From positions 1-27,409 of the forward strand of contig JBHLRQ010000034.1 in assembly GCA_048882385.1 (NCBI GenBank): DNA of 27,409 nucleotides, written 5' to 3'. Within the stretch, counting starts at the first letter, position 1; the number at the start of each line of letters is the position of its first letter. The notes under the pieces were generated by a model. That model worked only from the letters and a program-made list of their open reading frames with translations. It did no database searches and had not been told where the DNA came from. Below are positions 12,907 to 25,282 of this stretch, one piece after another. The translations under genes were made by a program, and so were the position numbers. The stretch comes from Candidatus Thorarchaeota archaeon (GTDB lineage Archaea; Asgardarchaeota; Thorarchaeia; Thorarchaeales; Thorarchaeaceae).

Positions 12907-13683
12907 TCAGTCCTTCCAGTCAAAATCATCAACATTGTCCCATGCATAAGGAAAGCCTTTCATTGAGTGTTTCATGGATTTCATCGATTTGAGACCCTTC
13001 AGTCCTTTCATCGCTCCAGCCACTGATCTCGAAACTATTGGACCAATGTCTAGAAAATTATCAAGCCCAACAATTCCATCCTTACCTACAATGATCTGCT
13101 TGCCATCTGAGTTGGACACAACAACTCCGGACCTGCTCACTGACACGAGGTTGTCATCACCAACCACATGGATCATCTTGCCATAGATGAACACAAGTCC
13201 TTTTTTCTCGCTCAGAACAAGTAGGATTTTCGTCCCAGTATTGTCCCGACCAAAGAAGACCCATGTATCTCTCTTCTGGTCGATCTTTGAATGAGTATCC
13301 TCACCATTCACAAATTCTTCGATCGTGGATCTCACTGATGTGATGAAGGCATCAACATTGGTGTATTCCTGACTTCTCAAATCGGAAATGTCAGCGATCT
13401 TGGATATATTCTCCAGTGAAGTCGCACCAATGAACAACTGAACTCCAACTAAAGTTCCAGTAACTGACTCGCCCATGGCGCCCATTCTGGTTTCTGCAAT
13501 TGCATCTACTGCAAATCTGGACGGTCCGGAAAATGCAACTCCAATCCTCACGCCATCTTCAAGGAGGTATGCCCAAACGCATCCCGCCTCGAGTTTGACA
13601 TAGGCCTTCTCATGTGAAATGATTTCAACCTCTTGTGTTATGACCATTACATTGCTATCTGGTGTTATCTTATTCAACATCAA
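12907..13683 (-). CDS. Hypothetical beta-rich protein, co-transcribed with the ArsR regulator
   Basis: GGAGG RBS in the 7-nt gap after the upstream stop; C-terminal MKG/LKG/MKS repeats and a DDFDWKD end. Confidence 0.7.
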   Translation of the reverse strand: MMLNKITPDSNVMVITQEVEIISHEKAYVKLEAGCVWAYLLEDGVRIGVAFSGPSRFAVDAIAETRMGAMGESVTGTLVGVQLFIGATSLENISKIADISDLRSQEYTNVDAFITSVRSTIEEFVNGEDTHSKIDQKRDTWVFFGRDNTGTKILLVLSEKKGLVFIYGKMIHVVGDDNLVSVSRSGVVVSNSDGKQIIVGKDGIVGLDNFLDIGPIVSRSVAGAMKGLKGLKSMKSMKHSMKGFPYAWDNVDDFDWKD

Positions 13684-13690
13684 ATCCTCC

Positions 13691-14617
13691 TCAGTCTTCC
13701 CAGTCTAAATCGTCTAAATCATCAGTATCATCATCATCCTCTTCTGAAACATCGAGGTCTTCCATTTGCTCCTCAAGCTCTTCTCGCTGTTCTTCAAGCT
13801 CTCCCCTCTGTTCCTCAAGCTCTTCAGCAAGTTCTTCAAGATGAGCTCTTGCAGACTCTGTAGCATCCTCATCCTCTACGATGACAACACTTTCATCATC
13901 ATCAAACTCGACACTCACTTCTCCATTGTTGCCAGTTTGTTTTCTTTGATTCTCGATTCTGTATGTCAGCCACTGAGCAAGTCGATAGGCCAGCCGTCCT
14001 TCCACTGTGACATAGTAGGTTCCTCGGACTTCGCCTTTTACAACATAGCCAGCATCAATCAATGGATTGAGATGATGTGTCAATGAGCTCCCTGTTTTGC
14101 CTGTGAATTCCTCAATTTCATTGAAGCCCTTTCCGCCAGACTTGAGGTAGTCGAGAATTTTCAACCTCTCTTCATTTCCAAGAGGCGCAACTATTTGGGC
14201 CACTCTCTCAGGTGCAATAGACTCAATCATAGCCAACTGTTCCTTTCTCTTCTTGGTTCTACGTCGACCCTTGTGAATACGAATGCCTGGTACTTTCAGA
14301 CCATCGATGCTACTCAGACTCATCTCAATTGAGCGGCCCAATCCATCCATCATGTTCTCAAGAGAGTCTGTAAGATCTTCAAGATCTAGGTCTACTCTAG
14401 CGACTCTTGGTACTCTCGGCACACGTCCAACTCTTGGTGGTCTAGGTGTTCTAGGAGTTTTAGGAGCTCTTTGCTCTCCATGTCGTTGTATTTCAGCTCT
14501 ACGTCGATACTCGTCCGCCTTCTCACGACGAACAGCTTCAACTTCTCGTCGTAGCTCTTCTTTGAGCCTACGAACCTCTTCAAGCTCCTTGCGAATATTG
14601 TCTATTTCGTCACTCAT
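13691..14617 (-). CDS. ArsR-family wHTH regulator with coiled-coil and low-complexity extensions
   Basis: PLGNEERLKILDYL...SSLTHHLNPLIDAGYV...YYVTVEG core. Start is ATG 14617 or TTG 14632. Confidence 0.8.
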   Translation of the reverse strand: MSDEIDNIRKELEEVRRLKEELRREVEAVRREKADEYRRRAEIQRHGEQRAPKTPRTPRPPRVGRVPRVPRVARVDLDLEDLTDSLENMMDGLGRSIEMSLSSIDGLKVPGIRIHKGRRRTKKRKEQLAMIESIAPERVAQIVAPLGNEERLKILDYLKSGGKGFNEIEEFTGKTGSSLTHHLNPLIDAGYVVKGEVRGTYYVTVEGRLAYRLAQWLTYRIENQRKQTGNNGEVSVEFDDDESVVIVEDEDATESARAHLEELAEELEEQRGELEEQREELEEQMEDLDVSEEDDDDTDDLDDLDWED

Positions 14618-14630
14618 TGTATTGTTCGCC

Positions 14631-14684
14631 AACTGTAATAATGTACAGTTTTAATATAAAGCTTGTGGATGTAGTAATATACAT
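14631..14684 (-). promoter_or_regulatory. TATA box flanked by two TGTA-N6-TACA operators
   Basis: AACTGTA-ataatg-TACAGTT (14631-50) and ATGTA-gtaata-TACAT (14669-84) flank minus-strand TTTATATTAA (14651-60). Confidence 0.65.
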
Positions 14685-15134: not shown

Positions 15135-15200
15135 GTGAAACAACTGCGTTGAAAAGCACGCTTATCTGAAAACTCAGTTAATGTGATTGAGGTGTCATCT

Positions 15201-15464
15201 ATGCCATCCAATGAGAAACCTCGCGGGTACTATCTAGTTCTCTTTATCATGCTACTACCCATTCTAGTAATCCTCCTCTTACCTTTACTCTCAATTGGAA
15301 TTGGTGGTCTACCAGCAGCCTTACTTATGATCGCGTTTGTAGTACTCCCTCTGGTAAGTTGTGGAACAGGATTCAAAGGCAGAGGACTTTTTCAATCTCA
15401 TTATCACGGTGAACCATTCAAGGACGAGGTAATGGACATCTCAGAAGACGATAGGATAGTATGA
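15201..15464 (+). CDS. Small 2-TM membrane protein
   Basis: GAGGTG RBS before ATG 15201; two hydrophobic helices and an acidic tail. Confidence 0.6.
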   Translation: MPSNEKPRGYYLVLFIMLLPILVILLLPLLSIGIGGLPAALLMIAFVVLPLVSCGTGFKGRGLFQSHYHGEPFKDEVMDISEDDRIV

Positions 15465-15515
15465 AATAGAGATAATGACATTGTAGGTTCAGGGTTTGTA
15501 ACAGGCGGGAATCAA

Positions 15516-16019
15516 TTGGGGATTGAGAGTGAATCAGTTCAGAATGACTCGCGTCTTACAGCGAGGGTTGTAGTAATTGACATTGTGAAATATACTGTTC
15601 ATGGATTCCTGATGACAGCAGCATTTGTAGGTCTGGATTATTATATGGAAGTCTTGCTAGTGAATTCATTTTTTGGAAACAGAATCTTTTTTCTCCCCCT
15701 TTTACTGATGTTGTGTGTTCCTTTGGTCTTCATCCTTCTGGGCGCTTTAAACAGAGCTTTGACAGAACAACTATGGAATTACAAGGCGAGTAACAATTGG
15801 GCGAGTCTTTTGGTACAGGGCGTCATAATCTCTTTCATCACTATGTATGCGATGGGAATTTTCGAAAACCTGCTCATGGCTTTCTTTCATGTATTTCCGT
15901 ATGGTTTCATTGGAGTTTTTTTCCTATTGCCATACACCTTAATCATAATACCCTTCTTTGGACTGATCTGCAAAGTTGTTCTTGTAACACTCATGGATAT
16001 CGCAAAAGCGATTGGATAG
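15516..16019 (+). CDS. Hypothetical 4-TM membrane protein
   Basis: Four hydrophobic segments; TTG start after GGCGGG. Confidence 0.65.
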   Translation: MGIESESVQNDSRLTARVVVIDIVKYTVHGFLMTAAFVGLDYYMEVLLVNSFFGNRIFFLPLLLMLCVPLVFILLGALNRALTEQLWNYKASNNWASLLVQGVIISFITMYAMGIFENLLMAFFHVFPYGFIGVFFLLPYTLIIIPFFGLICKVVLVTLMDIAKAIG

Positions 16020-16098
16020 TTTGTCGTTCTTTTGGACTATTTGGAGTAATTCTTACCCTGTTCAACATGCTATAATGCAACTATGATATGTGTAGGAT

Positions 16099-16584
16099 GT
16101 GGTGAAAATGGATAACAGTCCAATATTCACATCAAGGCTCAGAATAGCTATTATTGTCATAGCCATCATTATTGTCTTTGTTCTTCCATATGGATATCAT
16201 GTAGACTTAGGACCTGGACCAAATGGTTTCATGGCTATTCTTTGGGAGCTTCCTGAGTTTCAGGTCCTCCCTGAATATCCTGGTATTATGCCTCTGACAG
16301 CTCTGGAATACTTCATTTACTATCTCTATCGACTCGTTGTCTTGTACGCAATCTGGAAATTCTCACTTGGGATGATGAAACAAAAAAGACTCTTGACTCA
16401 TGGAATACTATCAGAGTTGATTCCAATACTCATTTCTATTCCAGGGATTCTTATCCTTGATCCATCAGGACACAATTACATTCCAATAATGATACCCATT
16501 CCTATTCTGGTATTCTACTGTGGATTACTTGTGGTGTACCAGCAATATCTTACAAAGAACAGAAGGCTAGAACAAAGTAGTTGA
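16099..16584 (+). CDS. Hypothetical 4-TM membrane protein (paralog family with 18314 and 20228)
   Basis: Hydrophobic helices; IWKFSLGMMKQK loop; C-terminal IPIPIL. Confidence 0.7.
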   Translation: MVKMDNSPIFTSRLRIAIIVIAIIIVFVLPYGYHVDLGPGPNGFMAILWELPEFQVLPEYPGIMPLTALEYFIYYLYRLVVLYAIWKFSLGMMKQKRLLTHGILSELIPILISIPGILILDPSGHNYIPIMIPIPILVFYCGLLVVYQQYLTKNRRLEQSS

Positions 16585-16776
16585 AACAGATTCTATAAAT
16601 GCCATTCATAGGGAGTCCTCTCAATTGGAGAGATGAGCGAGATCCCAATCGCATATCCTGAATCATTTTAGTACGAATCTTATTCCTTCTAAAGACAGAT
16701 TATATCATTGATTGATTGATCTTGGTGAGTATTTCCATCTTATTTCAATTTGAACTGCAAATGTGGGGGTTTATCG

Positions 16777-16893
16777 ATGCAACAGACTTTGAGTCCAGAG
16801 GAGGTAATCCTCTTCTTAATACTTACTGCAATGGGGCTGTTAGCACTGTGTATGATATTTGGCTACATGATCTATGGAGAAGAAGAAGAATAG
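16777..16893 (+). CDS. 38-aa single-TM microprotein (absent from the ORF track)
   Basis: MQQTLSPEEVILFLILTAMGLLALCMIFGYMIYGEEEE*, preceded by a GGGGGT RBS-like element. Confidence 0.55.
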   Translation: MQQTLSPEEVILFLILTAMGLLALCMIFGYMIYGEEEE

Positions 16894-16914
16894 TCTAGAT
16901 ATAAACAAAAGATC

Positions 16915-17601
16915 CTAGTCCAATGACCCATTAGCCACATGTTGCGGTTGTCTAGATTTGGGTAGGAACAGAAACAGCACATAAACTCCAAGTGCCATGA
17001 ATATGGCCCAGAAGCCGATGTCAAGAATAATTTGACTAAGCAAGAAAGAGCTAGGCAAGAAGGATAGAGTCATAGGAAAGGCCAGTTTTATGATTGATAT
17101 TGAGAGAATTGCAAGAGAGATGATGAAGCTGAGTAAGTAGTTCCCTGAGAGATAGCTTGTTTTGACTTGGTCTTTAATTCGTTTGAGCTGTTCAAAGAAA
17201 ACTAGTCCAGCTATTACCATCAAAGATCCTGTGACAATATACTCTCCGAGGAGTACTCCAATGTAGAGATGAGTGAGATTAATGAACTCGCTCTGGTCAT
17301 CCATTGCTAGGCTCTGGAAGATTGGCAAACCGTCTGGCCAACCTATCACAATTCGATAGTAGAATTGGTTTGTGTCATAATCCCGATATTGTTGCATAGT
17401 AAAAGGATAAGCTGATGGTGGCATCACTCTAAGTTCTTGATTAGAGCCAGCAGGGATCTCCACAATCGGGAAACTTCCGGAGGTGATCGCAACCAATCCT
17501 GTAACCAGTACTGCGATAATGGTTATACGCAGGGTTTTGTTGACGATTGTATTGTTCTGACGATTCCATGCAATAATACATGCGAGTACGACAAAGATCA
17601 T
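16915..17601 (-). CDS. Hypothetical membrane protein with an extracellular loop
   Basis: N-terminal TM, an ~65-aa polar loop and three further TM helices; start uncertain. Confidence 0.6.
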   Translation of the reverse strand: MIFVVLACIIAWNRQNNTIVNKTLRITIIAVLVTGLVAITSGSFPIVEIPAGSNQELRVMPPSAYPFTMQQYRDYDTNQFYYRIVIGWPDGLPIFQSLAMDDQSEFINLTHLYIGVLLGEYIVTGSLMVIAGLVFFEQLKRIKDQVKTSYLSGNYLLSFIISLAILSISIIKLAFPMTLSFLPSSFLLSQIILDIGFWAIFMALGVYVLFLFLPKSRQPQHVANGSLD

Positions 17602-17829
17602 CCTTTGGCCCCCAATTCTGATGTTGGTTAGATATTGGCCACAACGACAATATGTCTTCTTATTATGCTAAAATTGTATCAGTTCCGTGGAATTTTGAGA
17701 TAGAGCTATTGTCACACTCAAATCTACAATTCTATACTCAGTTCAATTAACCCAGAATAGAACCGTTAGGCTACTATGCGGAGTGTTCATTAGATTTCGA
17801 GTACTAACTTTAGGTGGTGTAGAGAGAAA

Positions 17830-18129
17830 ATGGGAGATTTCTTCCTGACATACGATGAGTCGGGCAAAGCGTATCTCAGAAGACTGTTCTATTTCAATGT
17901 ACTATTCTATCCAGTAATGATTCTTGTTGCAGTAGTCTACATGGTCGATATTCTGGTAGTAATCTTTGCAGCTTCCCTCTTGGCATGTGGTTCCCTTATC
18001 TACGCTGCCTATTTCATTATCAGAAATCCACCGATGGAGTATGGAGAAGATCTCTCTGCTTTAGCATCGTTGGAAATGGATGAAGAGGATGGAGGAAACT
18101 CCTCAACATCTCAGTCTGGATCTTTTTGA
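17830..18129 (+). CDS. Small 2-TM membrane protein
   Basis: GGTGG RBS-like element upstream, two TM helices; the last ~15 codons run antisense through repeat R5. Confidence 0.6.
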   Translation: MGDFFLTYDESGKAYLRRLFYFNVLFYPVMILVAVVYMVDILVVIFAASLLACGSLIYAAYFIIRNPPMEYGEDLSALASLEMDEEDGGNSSTSQSGSF

Positions 18130-18249
18130 CTACCACAATGACCTCTGGAAGAACGGTGAAGATGCCATAAACTATACAAAAGTCTAGAAAATTGAGAATT
18201 GGAGAGGCGGGGTTATTTTTGATGACCTCGATGATATCAGTTGACGACA
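18085..18249 (-). repeat. R5: diverged copy of the etfA 3' end plus hairpin
   Basis: 18104-18238 is colinear and gap-free with etfA 23293-23427 (hand count 90/135 nt, ~67%). Translates DIIEVIKNNPASPILNFLDFCIVYGIFTVLPEVIVVVKKIQTE. Confidence 0.9.
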
Positions 18250-18313
18250 AGTTCAGGTTGGTATAGAACAATAAGGATATGAGCAAATTATTCCGCGTGC
18301 TACGGAAATCGAT

Positions 18314-18799
18314 TTGGTGTGTAAGTTGAATCAAGACACAACGCGTGTGGGGAGATTCATGCTGTTCATTTTTGTGGCAGCTTTGATTGCTCCACACACT
18401 TTCGAAATCTCAAGTCAAACAATTCCTGATTATTCTTATACACGTTATAGTTTGATTTTAGTAATATTGACTCTCTTTTATGAATCAGGTACAACTATTG
18501 CTGGACAATACAGTACTGGATTTATTCTGCCTCCTACCTCATCAGTTCTATTGAATGTGCTGACTTTGGTAATCAATGTTTCAATAGTATTGAGTCAGTG
18601 GGGGTACGCGAAAGGTAGAATTTCAAGGAAGAATGTCCTGTATATAATTGGGATAGCTCTGTGTGTACATGTACTTCTGCTGATCGGCTTTTTCTCATAC
18701 CAGTTGGATGCAACAGCAAGTGTACTGGCAATACCTCTCCCGATTTTCCCCGTAATTAGTGCTCTAGTGGTTCTTCGGGGTATGATTTCAAATTCATAA
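18314..18799 (+). CDS. Hypothetical 4-TM membrane protein (paralog family)
   Basis: QWGYAKGRISRK loop; C-terminal IPLPIF; start uncertain (18314, 18317 or 18359). Confidence 0.65.
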   Translation: MVCKLNQDTTRVGRFMLFIFVAALIAPHTFEISSQTIPDYSYTRYSLILVILTLFYESGTTIAGQYSTGFILPPTSSVLLNVLTLVINVSIVLSQWGYAKGRISRKNVLYIIGIALCVHVLLLIGFFSYQLDATASVLAIPLPIFPVISALVVLRGMISNS

Positions 18800-18810
18800 A
18801 CTGAGAGAGC

Positions 18811-18841
18811 GAAGATAGGGATGAAGTCTCTATCTTTCAGC
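18811..18841 (-). repeat. R4: short remnant of the etfA tail and hairpin
   Basis: GAAGATAGggatgaagtctCTATCTTTCAGC versus R1 GAAGATAGagaatgttcttCTATCTTTCAGC: same length, identical ends (encodes AER*). Confidence 0.75.
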
Positions 18842-18893
18842 TGTGCCCAAATCTTTGATGCTCTCTCCAGTGCATATTATGTCAAAGAAGAGT

Positions 18894-19682
18894 CTATTGC
18901 GAAGCTTCTACAAGCCATAATGACACCTTCAAGAGAAGATTCCACTCAGAATCTGGATCGTTGTGATAGTCAAAGTCGTCGGTGCCATCAAGCGCACCAT
19001 TCTCCTCATATTCAGGATGCGGAAATGAGAGAAATACAGTACCGCTTCCGTACCTACAGGCAATCATACCAGGTTCATTGTTTTGCGTATAAAGTACGAT
19101 TGGAATAACTGTTGACATATATGTCGTATTACTTGAATAAAAATAACCAGAGTTCCAGTATAGAATTTCATACGTTGCGGGCTCATTAGAAAGGTCTGGA
19201 CCTGTCGAATTTGTGTTCACAATCATTGGGATTACCTTCGTATCCGAACCATTCACAGCACCACTTGCATAACCGTCGAAAAGGCCAAGATAGGAGTTGG
19301 TCCCAAATACCGAACCTCCACAAATACCAAAGAATGATCCTCCTCCTGTAATGAAGTCTAGGACTGCGCTCCTACCTACAGTTCCAAGGTAGGAATGATA
19401 GTCAAATGAGGAGCCTCCGGGAAAAACGATTATGTCATATTCATCAAGCACACCCTGTTGAATCTCAGTTGAATTCACATAATTGGCTTCTGCATTCATC
19501 CAACGAAACATGTTTAGTAATGCGATGGAACTAGAAGGCATAGCACCTCTATCATTGTAGACACCTACGCGGACTCCTTCCATTCCTGTTGGAAATCTGT
19601 AAGTAAGTGCCAGAGAACCAACTACAAGAAGTGCCACAATAAACACTACAGCACCTATTTTCTTTGAAGATTCTATTGTCAT
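18894..19682 (-). CDS. Membrane-anchored BPL-N / class I glutamine amidotransferase-like protein
   Basis: N-terminal TM, VGVYNDRGA, FPGG, GGSFFGICGG nucleophile elbow and HPE. Confidence 0.8.
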   Translation of the reverse strand: MTIESSKKIGAVVFIVALLVVGSLALTYRFPTGMEGVRVGVYNDRGAMPSSSIALLNMFRWMNAEANYVNSTEIQQGVLDEYDIIVFPGGSSFDYHSYLGTVGRSAVLDFITGGGSFFGICGGSVFGTNSYLGLFDGYASGAVNGSDTKVIPMIVNTNSTGPDLSNEPATYEILYWNSGYFYSSNTTYMSTVIPIVLYTQNNEPGMIACRYGSGTVFLSFPHPEYEENGALDGTDDFDYHNDPDSEWNLLLKVSLWLVEASQ

Positions 19683-19849
19683 ATCAAATAGCCCCGTCTA
19701 ACCAGCTACACCCGTCATCGAAGATGATATACTAGGTACTCGCGATTTCATCTTCAATGAACTGTTATAATAGAACAATGTTCAACGCAATATTAGCAAG
19801 GTTTCTGATAGAATCATCTTGATTGATTGCATATTCAAAAAGATGATAG

Positions 19850-19995
19850 ACCTATCCGACTTACATCAGTGGATAGGTAGATTTCATTACCTTTCGGCCT
19901 GGATCTTCTTCACTGCCCTGATAGCTTCAGAAGGTATGTTATAGTACTCCCGAACTCATTCAAAACATGTATCCCAGTTTCAAAGATTAGGGATT
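19850..19995 (-). repeat. R3: diverged etfA 3' end plus terminator hairpin
   Basis: 19887-19931 translates [13 protein letters not shown] (34/45 nt to etfA, several synonymous changes); weaker ESLIFET match near 19975-19995; hairpin ACCTATCC/GGATAGGT at 19850-78. Confidence 0.85.
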
Positions 19996-20227
19996 CTCGT
20001 AAATGGGTAATATGCCTGAGAATGCAATATGTGTCTGTTTATTGGTTATGTCAGCACCGTTCTTGTGAGCGATTTCTTTCTCCAGTACGATTAAGAATTT
20101 AGTAACCTTTTGATTCCAGTAGCTTGCTTCCTCTTCGGAAAGGACACTGAATTTGTACGAAAGCAAAACTTTGGGAATACTGAAATACACCCACCTTGGT
20201 ATCAGTCAATTGGAGGGAAGAAAATCT

Positions 20228-20764
20228 ATGACAGAGAATAAAGTTTCACCTATACCTATCTCAGTTTTGATAGCGTGGATTTTGATAACACTACTTGTTC
20301 CAGTCTCAATCTATTTCTACATAATAGCTGGCAACATGGCTGTGATGGGATATGGTATTCCCTATGCACTCATTTGGACCTACATACCTTATGGCGCAAA
20401 CCTTGACCTTGTTGGTACGTCGATTTTAGGAATCTACTTGTCAATCGATCCTAACAGTATCTTCTCAGGACTCCACATCCTCCACCCCCTTGTGATGATG
20501 TGGGTTCCTGTATATGGAGGGTTCAACATTCTTTTTGCAGTGCAAGTAGTCCGTTATTCCAAGGGTAAGACATCGTTGCGGAATACGATAATAGCTGGTC
20601 TTCTGACTCTAGCAATCCCACTATACGAGGTTGCTATCTTCCTACCGTACATGCTAAGTGATGGTTATCTTCGTATTATTGGACCTATACCGATTCAGCT
20701 AATTGTGGGTCTGATATTGATTAAAAAATATGGTCCAAAACCGTTGGCCACACCATGGGAATAA
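20228..20764 (+). CDS. Hypothetical 4-TM membrane protein (paralog family)
   Basis: GGAGG RBS before ATG 20228; VVRYSKGKTSLR loop; C-terminal GPIPIQ. Confidence 0.72.
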   Translation: MTENKVSPIPISVLIAWILITLLVPVSIYFYIIAGNMAVMGYGIPYALIWTYIPYGANLDLVGTSILGIYLSIDPNSIFSGLHILHPLVMMWVPVYGGFNILFAVQVVRYSKGKTSLRNTIIAGLLTLAIPLYEVAIFLPYMLSDGYLRIIGPIPIQLIVGLILIKKYGPKPLATPWE

Positions 20765-20766
20765 AT

Positions 20767-20849
20767 GAAGGTAGAGGATTTTTCTCAATCTTTCAGCTTG
20801 ATTTGTCTTTGCAGTCTTGACGACCTCCAAACGGCATTAAGATAATCAG
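20767..20849 (-). repeat. R2: degenerate etfA tail plus hairpin
   Basis: GAAGGTAGAGG..CTCAATCTTTCAGC hairpin; 20786-20827 translates EVVKTAKTNQAER (28/42 nt to R1). Confidence 0.7.
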
Positions 20850-21500
20850 CTATTCTAGGGCTTGTCGAAGTGCATCCCAGTCTTCAGCAGAAAGTGCTTT
20901 CTGGACAATCTGGATTGCTCCCTGAAACACAGCCGCTGGCATGAAGGATTTCATTCCAGATATTATACCGATTCGTTCCATAGGATTGGTTGCTTGAACC
21001 AGATATGGTAGAAAATACTGGGAAACCTCTGGAGCTGGCTTCATTGACATTTTCCCTATTATCTCAATGATTTGATTATCCTTTAGAACCTCCCAGAGAA
21101 TTGGCATTGCAATCTTCTCTTCGACCTGCATGTGTTCAGAGTATTTGACGACAAAGTCATTGAAGGTTTGAGCAACTTCATTTCCCCTCATTGTCCGCTC
21201 CTCATCAGCAATCAGGTCTTTCACCTGTTGTTCAAGCGAGTCCATTATTGGAGTAAATGATTGGTGGTCACGATTCAATCGATCAAATAGGCCCGAATCC
21301 TTTTCTTCAATGTGCGGAAACACAAACTCTTCTTCTGCTGCAGCATGAACATGTAGCACCTCAAAAGACTGCCTGACATCATCGCTTTGAGATTTGACAT
21401 CTGCTACTATGCGAAGGTCTAGCTGGCCCAATTGCAGCACTCTGGTGTTCAATAAATATCGAAGCCCTTTATGAATCGGTCCGAATAAACGCATACGCAA
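20850..21500 (-). CDS. Hemerythrin/HHE cation-binding domain protein
   Basis: IHKGLR, HVHAAAEEEFVFP, DH and EHMQVEE motifs. Confidence 0.85.
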   Translation of the reverse strand: MRMRLFGPIHKGLRYLLNTRVLQLGQLDLRIVADVKSQSDDVRQSFEVLHVHAAAEEEFVFPHIEEKDSGLFDRLNRDHQSFTPIMDSLEQQVKDLIADEERTMRGNEVAQTFNDFVVKYSEHMQVEEKIAMPILWEVLKDNQIIEIIGKMSMKPAPEVSQYFLPYLVQATNPMERIGIISGMKSFMPAAVFQGAIQIVQKALSAEDWDALRQALE

Positions 21501-21647
21501 AACAGAACCTCAACCTAGACCAAAGGCCATCTATGAGATAAAGGTTTCATTATGGTCTGTCTTGATGCAATTGTAAGAACCAACAAGAGTATGATTCAAG
21601 GGACTATCGGTCTGGAAACAGTTTATTGAACAAAAAGGATCGAGATA

Positions 21648-21801
21648 GAAGATAGAGAATGTTCTTCTATCTTTCAGCCTGAATCTTCTTGACTACTTCG
21701 ATAACCTCGGGAACTACAGTGAAGATGATACCAACTATGCCAAAGTCCGCAATCTCGAAGATTGGGACCTCTGGGTTTTTGTTGATGGCCGCGATGATAT
21801 C
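21648..21801 (-). repeat. R1: best-conserved copy of the etfA 3' end plus hairpin
   Basis: 21667-21801 versus etfA 23293-23427: gap-free, 108/135 nt (80%). Translates [44 protein letters not shown]. Confidence 0.95.
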
Positions 21802-21909
21802 GATGCAACTCGCTCCTTCGAAAAAAGCTAGTCTTCACTTTGTTTCAGTTACAAAGGAGTTAAAAAGATAATAGGATATATGTTAACTAAAATTGGTTAG
21901 CTATTAAGG

Positions 21910-22395
21910 TTGTGCGTGCTCTCTGTGAAGTCTATCCATTTCAAGTTCCCAACCAAGCGGCAGGAATTCATATGGCAGAAAAGACGACAAAGAATTCCTC
22001 CATCGATAATAGCTAGAGAATTGAAGGTTTCGCGTGCGTTAGTGAGCAAAACGCAACGAATTGCCGAGGATCGAATCGAAAAAATCTTGTTGCACACGGC
22101 AGCCGCAAATCGGATTAATGTCCAGCACATCAGCTCGAGATACGGTTTTGCTGTAGGTCACTGTCCTGCAAACAAATCTGAAACATACATTGTATACTCG
22201 CCTATGCTGGGAACCCAAGTATGGTTCAGTCATGGAGGAAACTGTGGGAGTTGCATTGAGCAGCCTGTATGCGAGAAGACAATCCACACACTTGCGCATG
22301 AATGGAATCTTCCACTTCGGAAAGAATTACCAGCGACAGAAGCAGCTGAGGAGCTCTTCATAGGAATAATGAGGCGACTGAAATGGATCGAATAG
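21910..22395 (+). CDS. HTH DNA-binding protein with a C-terminal His/Cys metal-binding motif
   Basis: PSIIARELKVSRALVSKT HTH; QVWFSHGGNCGSCIEQPVC; exact start uncertain. Confidence 0.75.
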   Translation: MCVLSVKSIHFKFPTKRQEFIWQKRRQRIPPSIIARELKVSRALVSKTQRIAEDRIEKILLHTAAANRINVQHISSRYGFAVGHCPANKSETYIVYSPMLGTQVWFSHGGNCGSCIEQPVCEKTIHTLAHEWNLPLRKELPATEAAEELFIGIMRRLKWIE

Positions 22396-23156
22396 ATACA
22401 AGATCATTATATGAGATGGTCAAAGAGTGGACTGAACAAAGGTGGGAGGCAGTCCGTTACAATCGCATTTCCGATGCGTTGTGGAATTCTCTTGAGGCTT
22501 GTGGACTCATTGAGGGACCATTTGGCGATTCCGTAACTCTGCTTGAGTCCTGTATTGTTGATTCAAACGAGGCTTTAGAAGCAGGTCTATTGAGTGAGAA
22601 TCAAGCATTAGACAATCTGAAAGAACTTCTAGAGAATGACGACTTTGCTTTAGGCGCTCAGATCATAGAAGTGACTGTCGATACAAATCCAGTATGCCGA
22701 ATATCAAACATCGACAAGTTGTTACAGGAGAATCGACCTATTGGTCCTCAGAAACCTCAATGGTGGAAACGAAGCGTTCGTAGTTTCTGGTTTTCTGTGG
22801 GAGTCTTTTCCTTTGCTACAATGGCTATTATTTATGTAATAATGATTAACCTTGGAATACTACCATCCACACAGTTCCTCTATGCTATAGCAATTGGTAT
22901 TCCAATGTACGCAATGGGTTACTATTTCCGCACGGTGGCAACCAAGAGAATGTGGAGAGCTGTGTTTATTATGCTTGGAGCTGGTGGTATAGGATTCTGG
23001 TGCTTAGCGCTCCCGATTGTATTACTCTTAGGTCCATACATTCGATTGATTCCTTTCGGGTTAGGCATGCCACTCACGTTCATTCCGACTGTGGTTATGG
23101 GAGCGTTCATGGGTGATTGGATTGGAAATCGACGAGATTATAGACCCTATATGTGA
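22383..23156 (+). CDS. Membrane protein: acidic soluble N-domain plus 4 TM
   Basis: Overlaps the HTH gene by 13 nt (coupled); four C-terminal hydrophobic helices. Confidence 0.7.
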   Translation: MDRIDTRSLYEMVKEWTEQRWEAVRYNRISDALWNSLEACGLIEGPFGDSVTLLESCIVDSNEALEAGLLSENQALDNLKELLENDDFALGAQIIEVTVDTNPVCRISNIDKLLQENRPIGPQKPQWWKRSVRSFWFSVGVFSFATMAIIYVIMINLGILPSTQFLYAIAIGIPMYAMGYYFRTVATKRMWRAVFIMLGAGGIGFWCLALPIVLLLGPYIRLIPFGLGMPLTFIPTVVMGAFMGDWIGNRRDYRPYM

Positions 23157-23238
23157 TGTTCGAGAAATTATTTTGGATGCAATGACTTTCATCTGAAGAT
23201 GAGGATGAGAGCTAGAATTTCTAATAATCCCATATTTA

Positions 23239-23281
23239 GGAAAAGGGTGGAATCACCCAGCTGTTTCCAAAACTGGGTGAT
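23239..23281 (-). terminator. etfA terminator hairpin
   Basis: ATCACCCAG(23252-60)/CTGGGTGAT(23273-81), followed on the minus strand by CCCTTTTCC. Confidence 0.65.
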
Positions 23282-23292
23282 ATCTTTTTCAA

Positions 23293-24492
23293 TTATCTCT
23301 CAGCCTGAATCTTCTTCACAGCCTCGATTATTTCAGGTAGGACTACGAATATATCTCCAACTATGCCAAAGTCTGCAATCTCGAAGATTGGAGCCTCTGG
23401 GTCCTTGTTGATGGCCACGATGATATCACTACTCGACATTCCAGCTAAGTGTTGGATCGCTCCAGAAATCCCCAGAGCAATGTAGAGCTTTGGGCAGACT
23501 GTCCGACCCGATTGTCCAACCTGTTGTGATGGTGGAAGCCACCCGAGGTCGACAATGGGACGTGAGCCACCAATTGCAGCGTCAAGAAGTTCTGCGAGTT
23601 GTTTTGGAAGTTCAAGGTTTGATGGGTCCTTGATTCCACGACCACTACAGACGATAATATCTGCTTCTTCGACAGACTTCATTCCTTCTACAGTTTCATT
23701 GACTGTTTCTAATACCCTAGTACGGATTTGGACGGGGTTTATTGTCATCTCAACCTTCTCAATCTCACCACTACGTGAAATGTCAGGTTCCTCGGGTTTG
23801 AAAACATTAGGTCGCACTGTTGCCATCTGTGGTCGAGTATATGGCGAAATAATTTCAGCCATAATGTTTCCACCGAAAGCAGGTCTCGTTTGGACCAGCT
23901 GACGTTCGTCATCAATATCAAGACCAGTACAGTCTGCAGTGAGTCCAAGAGCCATTCTCGCAGCAACACGGGGTGCAAGGTCACGGCCATTACTTGTTGC
24001 ACCATATAGAACTATAGCTGGCTTGTTTGGAGCGATCAGAGTGTTTAGGGCTATAGTGTAAGCATCTGTCGTATAGTGATCGAAAATCTTCTCATCCACA
24101 ACATAGACCTTGTCTGCCCCATGATGAATCAGAGTTTCTGCCTGAGACTCAATCTCATAACCGATAAGGATTGCAACCAAGCGCTCGCCCAATTTGTTAG
24201 CAAGCTCACGACCTTTCGTCACAAGCTCAAGACCAACTCCTCTAAGGCGTCCGTCGTTGGTTTCACACCATACCCAGACATCCTTGTATTTGGCAATTGC
24301 TTCTTTGTCGATGGCTTTCCGTTCAATCTTGATAGCGTTGTCCCTACAGACTTCCTCGCATGATCCACAGAGGACACACTTGTCCAGGTCAAATTTGACC
24401 TTGTCACCATCCTTCTCGATAGCTCCAAAGTTGCAGACCTTAGGACATAACATGCACCCAGTACAGGCATCTCTGTCATAAATCAATGTCAT
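23293..24492 (-). CDS. etfA: Electron transfer flavoprotein alpha subunit with an N-terminal 2[4Fe-4S] ferredoxin domain
   Basis: [11 protein letters not shown] and [11 protein letters not shown]; [50 protein letters not shown]. Confidence 0.95.
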
Positions 24493-24493
24493 G

Positions 24494-25282
24494 TTAAATT
24501 GCCCCCTTCTTTGCTAGGAAGTCAACAAGCTCCTTCGCTGCGGCCTTCGGATCTTCAGCCTCTATTTTGATTCCGCCTTTCTTCTTCTCAGGTGGAAAGA
24601 CCTTTCTCACTTGAGTCGGTGACCCCTTGAGACCGAGTTTCTCTACGTCATAACCAAGGGTTTCCGCATTGACCTCCTCGAAAGGCTTCTTTTTGGCCTG
24701 CATTATTCCCATGATGTTTGGAAGTCTAGGCTCATTCAAGCCTTTAGTCGCAGTAAGTAGAACAGGTATTCTTGCTCTTACAACATCATATCCCTCATCA
24801 GTTTCTCTGTGCGCAATGACCGCTTTGCTGTCATCACTCAACTCAAGATGGCGAACATAACAAATCTGAGGGACACTTAGCAATTCTGCCATCTCGGGAC
24901 CTACTTGTGCAGTATCTCCATCAATCGCTTGTTTACCACAGATTACAATATCAAACTCCATCTTTTTGATCTGTTCAGCCAAGGTAAGTGCAGTAACCCA
25001 TGTGTCTGCACCAGCAAAAGCCCGATCAGTCATATGGATTGCCTTGTCAGCACCCATTGCAAGCGCTTTTAGCAATGCTTCTTTGGCTTGAGGTGGCCCC
25101 ATTGTGATGACCGTCACTTCACCACCATGGGCTTCCTTCAATTTCACAGCCTCTTCAACAGCATATTCATCGAATGGGTTCAATATACTAGGTACTCCAT
25201 CTCTGATGAGTGTGCCAGTGGTTTCATCCACCTTCACATCAGCGACTTCAGGGACCTGTTTCACTGGTACAATAATCTTCAA
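24494..25282 (-). CDS. etfB: Electron transfer flavoprotein beta subunit
   Basis: VKQVP, NPFDEYAVEEA, FAGADT, GKQAIDGDTAQVGP, NEPR; TTG start. Confidence 0.95.
   Translation of the reverse strand: MKIIVPVKQVPEVADVKVDETTGTLIRDGVPSILNPFDEYAVEEAVKLKEAHGGEVTVITMGPPQAKEALLKALAMGADKAIHMTDRAFAGADTWVTALTLAEQIKKMEFDIVICGKQAIDGDTAQVGPEMAELLSVPQICYVRHLELSDDSKAVIAHRETDEGYDVVRARIPVLLTATKGLNEPRLPNIMGIMQAKKKPFEEVNAETLGYDVEKLGLKGSPTQVRKVFPPEKKKGGIKIEAEDPKAAAKELVDFLAKKGAI

Follow-up and report, generated by a model that had tools for sequence, protein, structure and literature searches.

The 3' end of etfA in this genus of Thorarchaeota would be a recurrent insertion site for small segments of DNA, which would enter at about codon 345-352 of the gene, with a second class of events at about codon 385-392. 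A segment would lead with its own in-frame rest of etfA and a terminator hairpin, followed by 1 or 2 cargo genes. The incoming tail would become the working EtfA C-terminus, and the former tail, now headless, would be displaced downstream and left to decay. Repeated events would build an array with the newest packet beside the gene. We favor this serial insertion model, in which each event imports a working tail and displaces the old one, with moderate confidence. An earlier note on the locus had proposed that the repeats downstream of etfA are former functional etfA alleles and that the resident tail may be the newcomer, and that interpretation is supported by the dN/dS values, by conflict between trees, and by a recombination breakpoint.

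Layout of the etfA locus

The window, meaning the whole stretch of DNA analyzed, is 27,409 nt long and is one whole contig of a 3.7-Mb metagenome-assembled genome that is 95% complete. A search of the whole genome finds its sole etfA at 23293-24492. There are 5 co-oriented tails in the window, namely the resident one and 4 displaced 3' copies, and not just the 3 long ones. Four packets of 1 or 2 genes each, in either orientation, lie between the tails, and a fifth variable stretch lies beyond T4. The features are listed here in the direction of etfBA transcription, with the names R1, R3, and R5 of the earlier note given where they apply.

24494..25282, minus strand: etfB (electron transfer flavoprotein beta subunit), first gene of the etfBA pair; Pfam ETF, E = 1e-51
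23293..24492, minus strand: resident etfA, 399 aa, with an N-terminal 2x[4Fe-4S] ferredoxin domain; Pfam ETF, ETF_alpha, and Fer4
23253..23457, minus strand: T1, the resident tail, codons ~346-399 with the stop and a terminator-like hairpin (about 23253-23280); nhmmer profile positions 1-205, hairpin from the DNA fold
21851..23157, plus strand: packet 1, an HTH protein of 161 aa (21910-22395) and a membrane protein of 257 aa (22383-23156); no Pfam family
21646..21831, minus strand: T2 (R1, given there as 21667-21801), a displaced tail with 54 open codons, stop at 21667-21669, and a hairpin overlapping the stop
20850..21500, minus strand: packet 2, a hemerythrin-domain protein of 216 aa; Pfam Hemerythrin
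20767..20830, minus strand: Ts, a short tail remnant with the last ~14 codons and a degenerate hairpin; from alignment of the repeat family
20153..20764, plus strand: packet 3, a membrane protein of 203 aa of no known family
19851..19931, minus strand: T3 (R3), a short remnant with the last ~14 codons, stop at 19887-19889, and a hairpin; nhmmer profile positions 139-219
18314..19682, both strands: packet 4, a BPL_N/GATase-like protein (18894-19682, minus) and a membrane protein of 161 aa (18314-18799, plus); from Pfam
18082..18253, minus strand: T4 (R5), the most decayed long tail, 48 codons, stop lost
15183..18081, no single strand: distal variable stretch of small membrane-protein genes, up to the conserved small gene F5 (15183-15464); from a gene-family map of 21 loci
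12907..14632, minus strand: conserved far flank, an ArsR-type HTH/coiled-coil protein and a 258-aa protein

T4 is the oldest of the long tails in the window. Each copy extends 20-38 nt beyond the stop and takes in a hairpin of 7-10 bp with a T-rich run behind it. A purine-rich hairpin of this kind was considered as an array-specific recombination site and rejected, since the same hairpin plus T-tract follows the stops of many unrelated genes, and we therefore read it as a terminator. Such bacterial-looking terminators, with a 7-10 bp and often purine-rich hairpin and a T-run, occur after many stops genome-wide (C52:8869, C62, and C139 have examples). The window hairpins at 23253-23280, 21649-21673, and 19851-19880 have stems that differ between tail classes with their complementarity kept.

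A tRNA scan finds no tRNA genes in the window, which rules out a tRNA-targeted island, and a phage database searched with the tail returned no matches. The one Rfam match within 17500-24000, a C/D-box overlapping T3, is below threshold (17.8 bits against a gathering score of 45) and is taken as chance.

Divergence and past selection of the displaced tails

T2 aligns to the 3' end of etfA with 80.6% nucleotide identity over 134 nt (BLAST E = 8e-32; nhmmer E = 1e-34). In amino acids it is 70% identical to the resident tail, and T4 is 54% identical. Over the 46 codons of T2 including the stop, 11 differ by synonymous changes only and 9 by nonsynonymous ones; the corresponding counts for T4 are 11 and 22, and its stop-equivalent codon (18104-18106) has gone from TAA to TTG, removing the stop. 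Neither alignment contains an indel, as the earlier note had said of these 2 copies. T3 has 5 synonymous-only and 3 nonsynonymous differences among 15 codons. All of the synonymous pairs that had been read by eye are found by alignment, 6 in T2 (GAG/GAA, GTG/GTC, CCT/CCC, GGA/GGT, GCA/GCG, and AAG/AAA) and 4 in T3 (AGA/AGG, GCT/GCC, ATT/ATC, and GCT/GCA).

The proposal that the copies diverged under protein-level selection came with the suggestion of computing dN/dS for each copy. By the Nei-Gojobori method, T2 against the resident has sd 19, nd 18, S 33.2, and N 116.8, giving dN 0.172, dS 1.08, and an omega of 0.16, well under 1 (p = 9e-5 against neutrality). T4 has an omega of 0.29 (p = 0.01), and the displaced copies of other genomes score 0.03-0.23, where finite, against their own or closest resident tail. 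A local duplicate decaying neutrally beside a constrained gene would be expected to show an omega of (1+0.03)/2, or about 0.52. T2 is under this value (p = 0.033), and T4 is not (p = 0.41), which leaves T4 indistinguishable by omega from a decayed local duplicate. Protein-level selection thus accounts for T2 and for the copies elsewhere, T4 alone being compatible with a neutral duplicate. We conclude that the tails were formerly functional. As to whether all copies are closest to the resident tail, which the earlier note had set against its own reading, the nearest sampled tail to T2 is the window's own resident, at a dS of ~1 where synonymous sites are near saturation; the displaced copy in the genome G015 is instead orthologous to the resident tail of another genome, G024, as described below.

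T2 and T4 have in common the states N364, T383, V388, and V391 (in a protein of 399 residues), and all 4 had been correctly picked out as shared by the copies and absent from the resident gene of the window. Across the genus the absence does not carry over, since T383 is present in 12 of 22 resident tails and V388 in 9 of 22, and V391 alone is confined to T2 and T4. Of 14 displaced copies, 5 (in 4 genomes) have N364, as against none of 22 residents (Fisher p = 0.005), which makes it a recurrent change after displacement and not a shared donor allele. Codon 364 lies at 21762-21764 in T2 and at 18212-18214 in T4, and Asn is also found there in displaced copies at 3 other loci (L051, L049, and L058). 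The invariant Asp of the EtfA motif NKDP becomes Asn by the same G-to-A change arising repeatedly after displacement. This recurrence could come from a mutational hotspot or from selection against a functional fragment.

Survey of the genus and boundaries of the copies

In all, 41 genomes including this one were searched and 20 loci were fetched, of which 18, the window among them, have full etfA and context. Displaced tails are present at 11 of these 18, each time on a single contig and from 11 separate assemblies; with those on other contigs counted, the genus has 23 displaced copies. The gene order is conserved as etfB, etfA, a variable region, the small gene F5, the HTH gene, the 258-aa gene, and 2 ABC transporter genes, and the variable region ranges from zero packets (genome G024, the empty site) to 4 or more. 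The ArsR-type HTH and 258-aa genes come after the variable region in 11 of the 18 full-context loci, and most of the others end before that flank. Upstream, etfA is accompanied by etfB, a small membrane protein, and phosphoglucomutase or Hdr-like genes.

Displaced tails are absent within 8 kb in another 4 public Thorarchaeota contigs. As a control, an internal tail-only copy of etfA was found in 0 of 154 non-Thorarchaeota loci (74 genome and 80 metagenome contigs), the 2 tail-only hits among them being cut by contig ends. The 80 metagenome control loci are ordinary EtfA genes at 57-80% identity that were brought in by an over-general 10-sequence tail alignment. Viral contigs scanned with the tail peptide gave 12 pattern matches, none of which was confirmed.

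All 18 resident genes have 399 codons and are free of indels. The 3' ends are constant among the 23 displaced copies. The 5' ends start at profile positions 18-38 (etfA nt ~1035-1055) in 11 of the 23 and at 137-157 in 7; the remaining 5 start at 45 (cut by a contig end), 57, 57, 80, and 85. The 5' boundaries are thus zones about 20 nt wide and not a single nucleotide, and no exact common start point or conserved packet-side motif was found at the copy boundaries.

Two further observations concern tails away from the gene. Genome G033, of another family in the same phylum, has isolated etfA C-terminal fragments (residues ~314-396, 49-54% identity) at C5:20433-20675 and C249:9012-9221, on contigs separate from etfA, and tail displacement may extend outside this genus. 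In genome G010 (L046, C86), the 2 ABC transporter genes that normally follow the array are in opposite orientation, and a second contig (L059, C115) has 3 more etfA tails, 2 of which enclose a 17-kb run of accessory genes (DinB, aldo-keto reductases, HAD hydrolases, and others). This layout may reflect a rearrangement between tails.

The resident tail as the probable newcomer

A maximum-likelihood tree of the etfA body (nt 1-1029) has fully supported sister pairs, yet sisters differ in tail class. G010 has a class I resident and a class II displaced tail, and its sister G004 has the reverse. Separate trees for body and tail had been suggested in the earlier note along with a breakpoint test, and both bear out the exchange of tails. 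In the AU test, the 18 resident tails are incompatible with the body tree (p = 0.014, delta lnL 22.6), as is the body with the tail tree (p = 1e-64); the tail tree itself is weak, with 3 of its 29 inner branches well supported. A GARD-like single-breakpoint scan with separate trees per side peaks at nt 1020 (delta-AICc 141.8, against 118 at nt 1044), just upstream of the zone at nt ~1035-1055 where the long copies begin.

The most direct view comes from G024, the empty site, and its sister G015. Their bodies are 91.5% identical with a dS of 0.33, and their resident tails match at 112 of 148 positions with a dS of 1.62, whereas the displaced copy of G015 matches the resident tail of G024 at 134 of 148 with a dS of 0.31. 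Since the displaced tail has the dS of the bodies and the resident does not, the resident tail of G015 came in later and took the place of the one now displaced. The G010/G004 pair is consistent with the same direction. Tails are therefore imported.

Profile positions put the start of foreign sequence at ~28 and that of the displaced copy at ~35 in G015, and at ~16-18 and ~24, respectively, in G004. These are the 2 lineages in which the edge can be read, and in both the foreign start is near the start of the displaced copy, which places the exchange at the 5' margin of the ~190 nt that are shared.

For the window, the best nucleotide match to the resident tail T1 is the displaced copy of G010, at 83.6% over 152 nt. 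We infer that T1 is the most recently imported tail of the window because decay grows with distance from etfA, packet 1 is at etfA in this genome only, and T2 and T4 keep majority states where the resident is odd.

Order of insertion and origin of the cargo

Decay rises with distance from etfA in the window and in genomes G004, G002, and G006. The second displaced copies (T3) of those 3 genomes have stops or frameshifts, and T4 of the window has lost its stop. The greater decay of distal copies fits insertion next to the gene, and we conclude that new packets enter there and that the newest adjoins etfA.

The cargo consists of ordinary accessory genes moving between lineages. The adjacent gene pair of packet 1 is also found in 10 of 27 other genomes of the genus, in places that have no etfA tails, and the cargo is therefore drawn from ordinary chromosomal genes. 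At such loci (e.g., L186 at G004:C69 and L179 at G024:C215) the pair is a conserved module that is sometimes tandemly duplicated, and the family of its 161-aa HTH protein has 5 matches in this genome. Packet 2 has 84% nucleotide identity to a packet between tails in G002. Between the window and G002, synonymous divergence (pS) is 0.38 for the hemerythrin gene and 0.45 for the gene of the 161-aa membrane protein, as against 0.65-0.85 for 6 core genes, and the BPL_N-like gene has a pS of 0.51-0.57 to G006 and G009, as against 0.70-0.83 for core genes. Both genes of packet 4 recur in the arrays of other genomes, elsewhere in the order, and packet order varies among genomes.

A second array at an acyl-CoA dehydrogenase gene

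Comparison of the genome with itself revealed a second repeat family, built on the same plan and forming a larger array than that at etfA. Its unit of ~22 codons with a spacer and a hairpin is present 8 times on one contig (C121; L153: 43-7072) and 4 times on another (C146; L154), with further copies on C173 and C189. Relatives have this sequence at the end of a 413/414-aa acyl-CoA dehydrogenase, and the process is therefore not peculiar to etfA. The parent gene is found at the coordinates below and is not assembled in this genome.

L172:8786-10030 (genome G004): acyl-CoA dehydrogenase parent gene
L174:9945-11186 (genome G013): acyl-CoA dehydrogenase parent gene

Copies of this tail are present in 24 of 28 genus genomes, with up to 21 per genome. 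The arrays have 8-10 or more units at a spacing of 0.5-2.4 kb, and the repeats of ~70 nt are 85-97% identical between genomes. The cargo includes rhodanese, NosD-like proteins, an acetyltransferase, glutamine synthetase, and hydrolases, with no recombinase among them. In G011 the tail profile has a weak match (E = 0.01) close to an integrase; it falls within an unrelated ORF and is put down to chance.

There are also direct-repeat pairs in this genome that end with a stop and a short downstream stretch, at C136:3642-3805/5355-5518 (164 nt, 90%), C21:37798-37905/38975-39085 (108 nt, 82%), and C100:1987-2168/6220-6401 (182 nt, 88%). The latter 2 include the 3' end of a long ORF. All 3 pairs are candidate further sites of tail duplication.

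Search for a recombinase

Pfam identifies no recombinase in the 28 ORFs of the window, in the 21 ORFs of the 17-kb tail-bounded stretch of G010, or in 49 further packet proteins, many of the scanned packet proteins matching no Pfam family. This genome as a whole (95% complete) has no matches to Phage_integrase (PF00589), Resolvase (PF00239), Cas1, Y1_Tnp, IS110, or DDE_Tnp_1, and it has one TnpB-like gene. A XerA candidate was rejected, as the 240-aa protein at C8:41629-42351 matches only at the N-terminus (22.5 bits) and has no catalytic domain; the usual chromosome-dimer resolvase seems to be missing or very divergent. Among the genus genomes, Phage_integrase matches occur in 9 of 28 and are absent from 19, the 10 integrase loci fetched from those 9 genomes contain no etfA tails, and an integrase or a fragment of one is found at 0 of 22 etfA loci. 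Mobile elements often drop out of genome bins, so the absence of a recombinase is weak evidence.

How the packets may be joined to the gene

A duplicate of the recipient's tail downstream of the insert calls for a circular donor and one crossover, or for some insertion of equivalent outcome. Homology-facilitated illegitimate recombination of linear DNA was dropped as a candidate because linear replacement cannot put the tail of the recipient on the far side of the insert. The crossover at the edge, the 2 clusters of 5' ends, and the insertion proximal to the gene point to a conservative reaction of the site-specific type. We suggest that a circular tail-carrying packet would cross over with the gene at the 5' edge of the shared tail, probably by means of a recombinase acting in trans that the packets do not encode. 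More tentatively, and with some doubt on our part, the arrays may amount to a gene-capture system that is integron-like in outcome and different in parts, with packets carrying a portable host-gene end and a terminator, at least 2 partner redox genes (etfA and acyl-CoA dehydrogenase), a recombinase of no recognized family or host recombination alone, and an enzyme C-terminus that each capture rewrites.

The main alternative dispenses with a dedicated recombinase. Homologous recombination between tails would release packets as circles that return through a single Campbell-type crossover within the etfA tail, or relatives would trade entire arrays by double crossover, with one exchange in etfA and the other in a tail or the far flank, the tails serving only as portable homology. 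It would account for the recombinase not found in packets or genome and for arrays that are clearly common to relatives. The acyl-CoA dehydrogenase repeats, at ~70 nt and 85-97% identity, are long enough for it, and there are mosaic tails, as where the displaced tail of G010 matches the resident of G020 at 23 of 26 positions in the flank after the stop and at 120 of 154 upstream. Against this, a single homologous crossover needs homology on both sides, and the exchange lies at most ~10 nt from the 5' edge in the 2 readable lineages; tails of different classes are just ~70-80% identical; and the first joining of a new gene to a foreign tail goes unexplained. We regard it as unlikely, though a contender to be taken seriously. 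A purely local origin, in which the tail was tandemly duplicated (e.g., by template switching during the copying-in of DNA) and decayed neutrally beside an original resident, would suit the window taken by itself, where the resident is the closest sampled tail to T2, T4 is within the expectation of ~0.52 (p = 0.41), and V391 is private to T2 and T4. This we consider very improbable given the T2 omega of 0.16 (p = 0.033 against 0.52), the values of 0.03-0.1 reached by copies of other genomes, the conflict between body and tail trees, and G015, where the foreign tail is the resident one and not the displaced one.

An array of small packets with repeats and no integrase also recalls a remnant of a classical integron, i.e., an attC cluster without its integron integrase, and Asgard integrons, mostly of just that kind, have been reported, with Thorarchaeia in the supplement, in the part of the source available to us (PMC9668308). 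The repeats here are copies of the coding tail of a host gene, however, and the packets have 1 or 2 genes in either orientation. Eight units folded as single-strand DNA give a terminal hairpin of 7-10 bp (z from -1.95 to +0.55) and not the long imperfect palindrome of an attC (55-140 nt), and Phage_integrase, the family of IntI, is absent from this genome; there is very little chance, in our estimate, that the array is such a remnant. There is also the question of assembly, as all of the loci come from metagenome-assembled genomes, which break at repeats, and many arrays stop at contig ends. That strain variants of the etfA end were stitched together by assembly or binning is nonetheless next to impossible, with the same architecture on single contigs of 11 separate assemblies and copies far too diverged for strain variants. 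Nineteen public runs from 6 studies contain all or part of the stretch, 11 of them at least half of the sampled words, and contigs of other runs bridge the junctions of tails and packets, e.g., X8 over 19871-21764 and X4 over 21740-23404. One joint of 19843 to 21668 in these contigs (X13, depth 3, 29 nt on the shorter side), which would link T2 with the sequence beyond T3, is too weak to be relied on. X8 has no cover at ~17305-19870 and X12 almost none at 20200-25100, gaps that are uninformative as no contig bridges them.

Comparison with known systems

The serial insertion that we favor has its closest relative in the prophage e14 (and phage 21) at icd of Escherichia coli. In the part of the source available to us (PMC6379469), e14 supplies replacement 3' codons and a headless pseudo-icd' of ~163 bp lies at the far end of the insert. 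Both systems insert in the 3' end of a coding gene and have flanking direct repeats of the target 3' fragment, and the e14 tail of ~53 codons, going by the same part, is nearly equal to ours. In both, the copy borne by the element restores the frame and the old end is displaced, as seen here in the 399 codons of 18 of 18 residents and in G015. They differ in that e14 is a single large prophage with its own integrase, whereas the packets here are 0.8-1.6 kb of ordinary genes with no recombinase found, stacked up to 4 or 5 deep and recurring across a genus of Asgard archaea. One fixed crossover core, and an excised circle with an empty site in the population, would be expected of an element of the e14/icd type. 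The 5' ends here fall in 2 zones of ~20 nt (18-38 and 137-157), and the empty site here is that of another species, G024.

The tycheposons and tRNA-flanked islands of Prochlorococcus, as far as the available part of bioRxiv 10.1101/2020.12.28.424599 describes them, have successive integrations that push older elements inward and leave partial target copies and degenerate elements. The likeness is in stacked insertions with partial target copies between cargo modules. The same part gives them a tRNA target without a protein tail swap, and tyrosine recombinases with replication modules, as against 0 of 22 loci with an integrase here. Integrons, mostly attC clusters without IntI, are given as enriched and present in about 8% of Asgard genomes in the available part of Ghaly et al. 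2022 (PMC9668308), and judged from that part they resemble our arrays in being small packets with the newest by a fixed attachment point, shuffled between genomes and in many cases without a nearby integrase. In contrast to integrons, the arrays here lack attC-type folded sites and IntI, and their packets are not single promoterless ORFs; the repeat is the coding end of the neighboring gene, and insertion alters that protein.

At the 3' end of fda in Streptococcus thermophilus there is tandem accretion of integrative elements and of cis-mobilizable, integrase-less remnants with att repeats of the gene 3' end. Those remnants can be mobilized in trans when a related element supplies the integrase. 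The likeness to the present arrays is in tandem integrase-less units bounded by repeats of a gene 3' end, and the difference is that no partner supplying an integrase was found here. Gene-tail arrays are not described in the available portions of the literature searched on Thorarchaeota mobile elements and archaeal integrons, including PMC8813620 and PMC11529989. What sets the present case apart from known systems is the combination of small packets without a recombinase, repeated swapping of a C-terminus, occurrence genus-wide at 2 genes, and an Asgard host.

Significance

How Asgard archaea acquire genes is a subject of study, yet to our knowledge few of the mechanisms have been assigned to particular loci in them. 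The etfA locus is a readable, ordered record of successive gene gains. It shows exchange of accessory genes among Thorarchaeota lineages outpacing divergence of the core genome, and repeated replacement of the C-terminus of a core flavoprotein gene. That a second gene has arrays of this design, with 10 or more units and in 24 of 28 genomes, suggests a lineage-wide process. With no recognized recombinase, the identity of the joining enzyme becomes a testable question. Displaced tails are also of practical use as markers for variable islands in fragmented Asgard assemblies, and they explain why assemblies break there.
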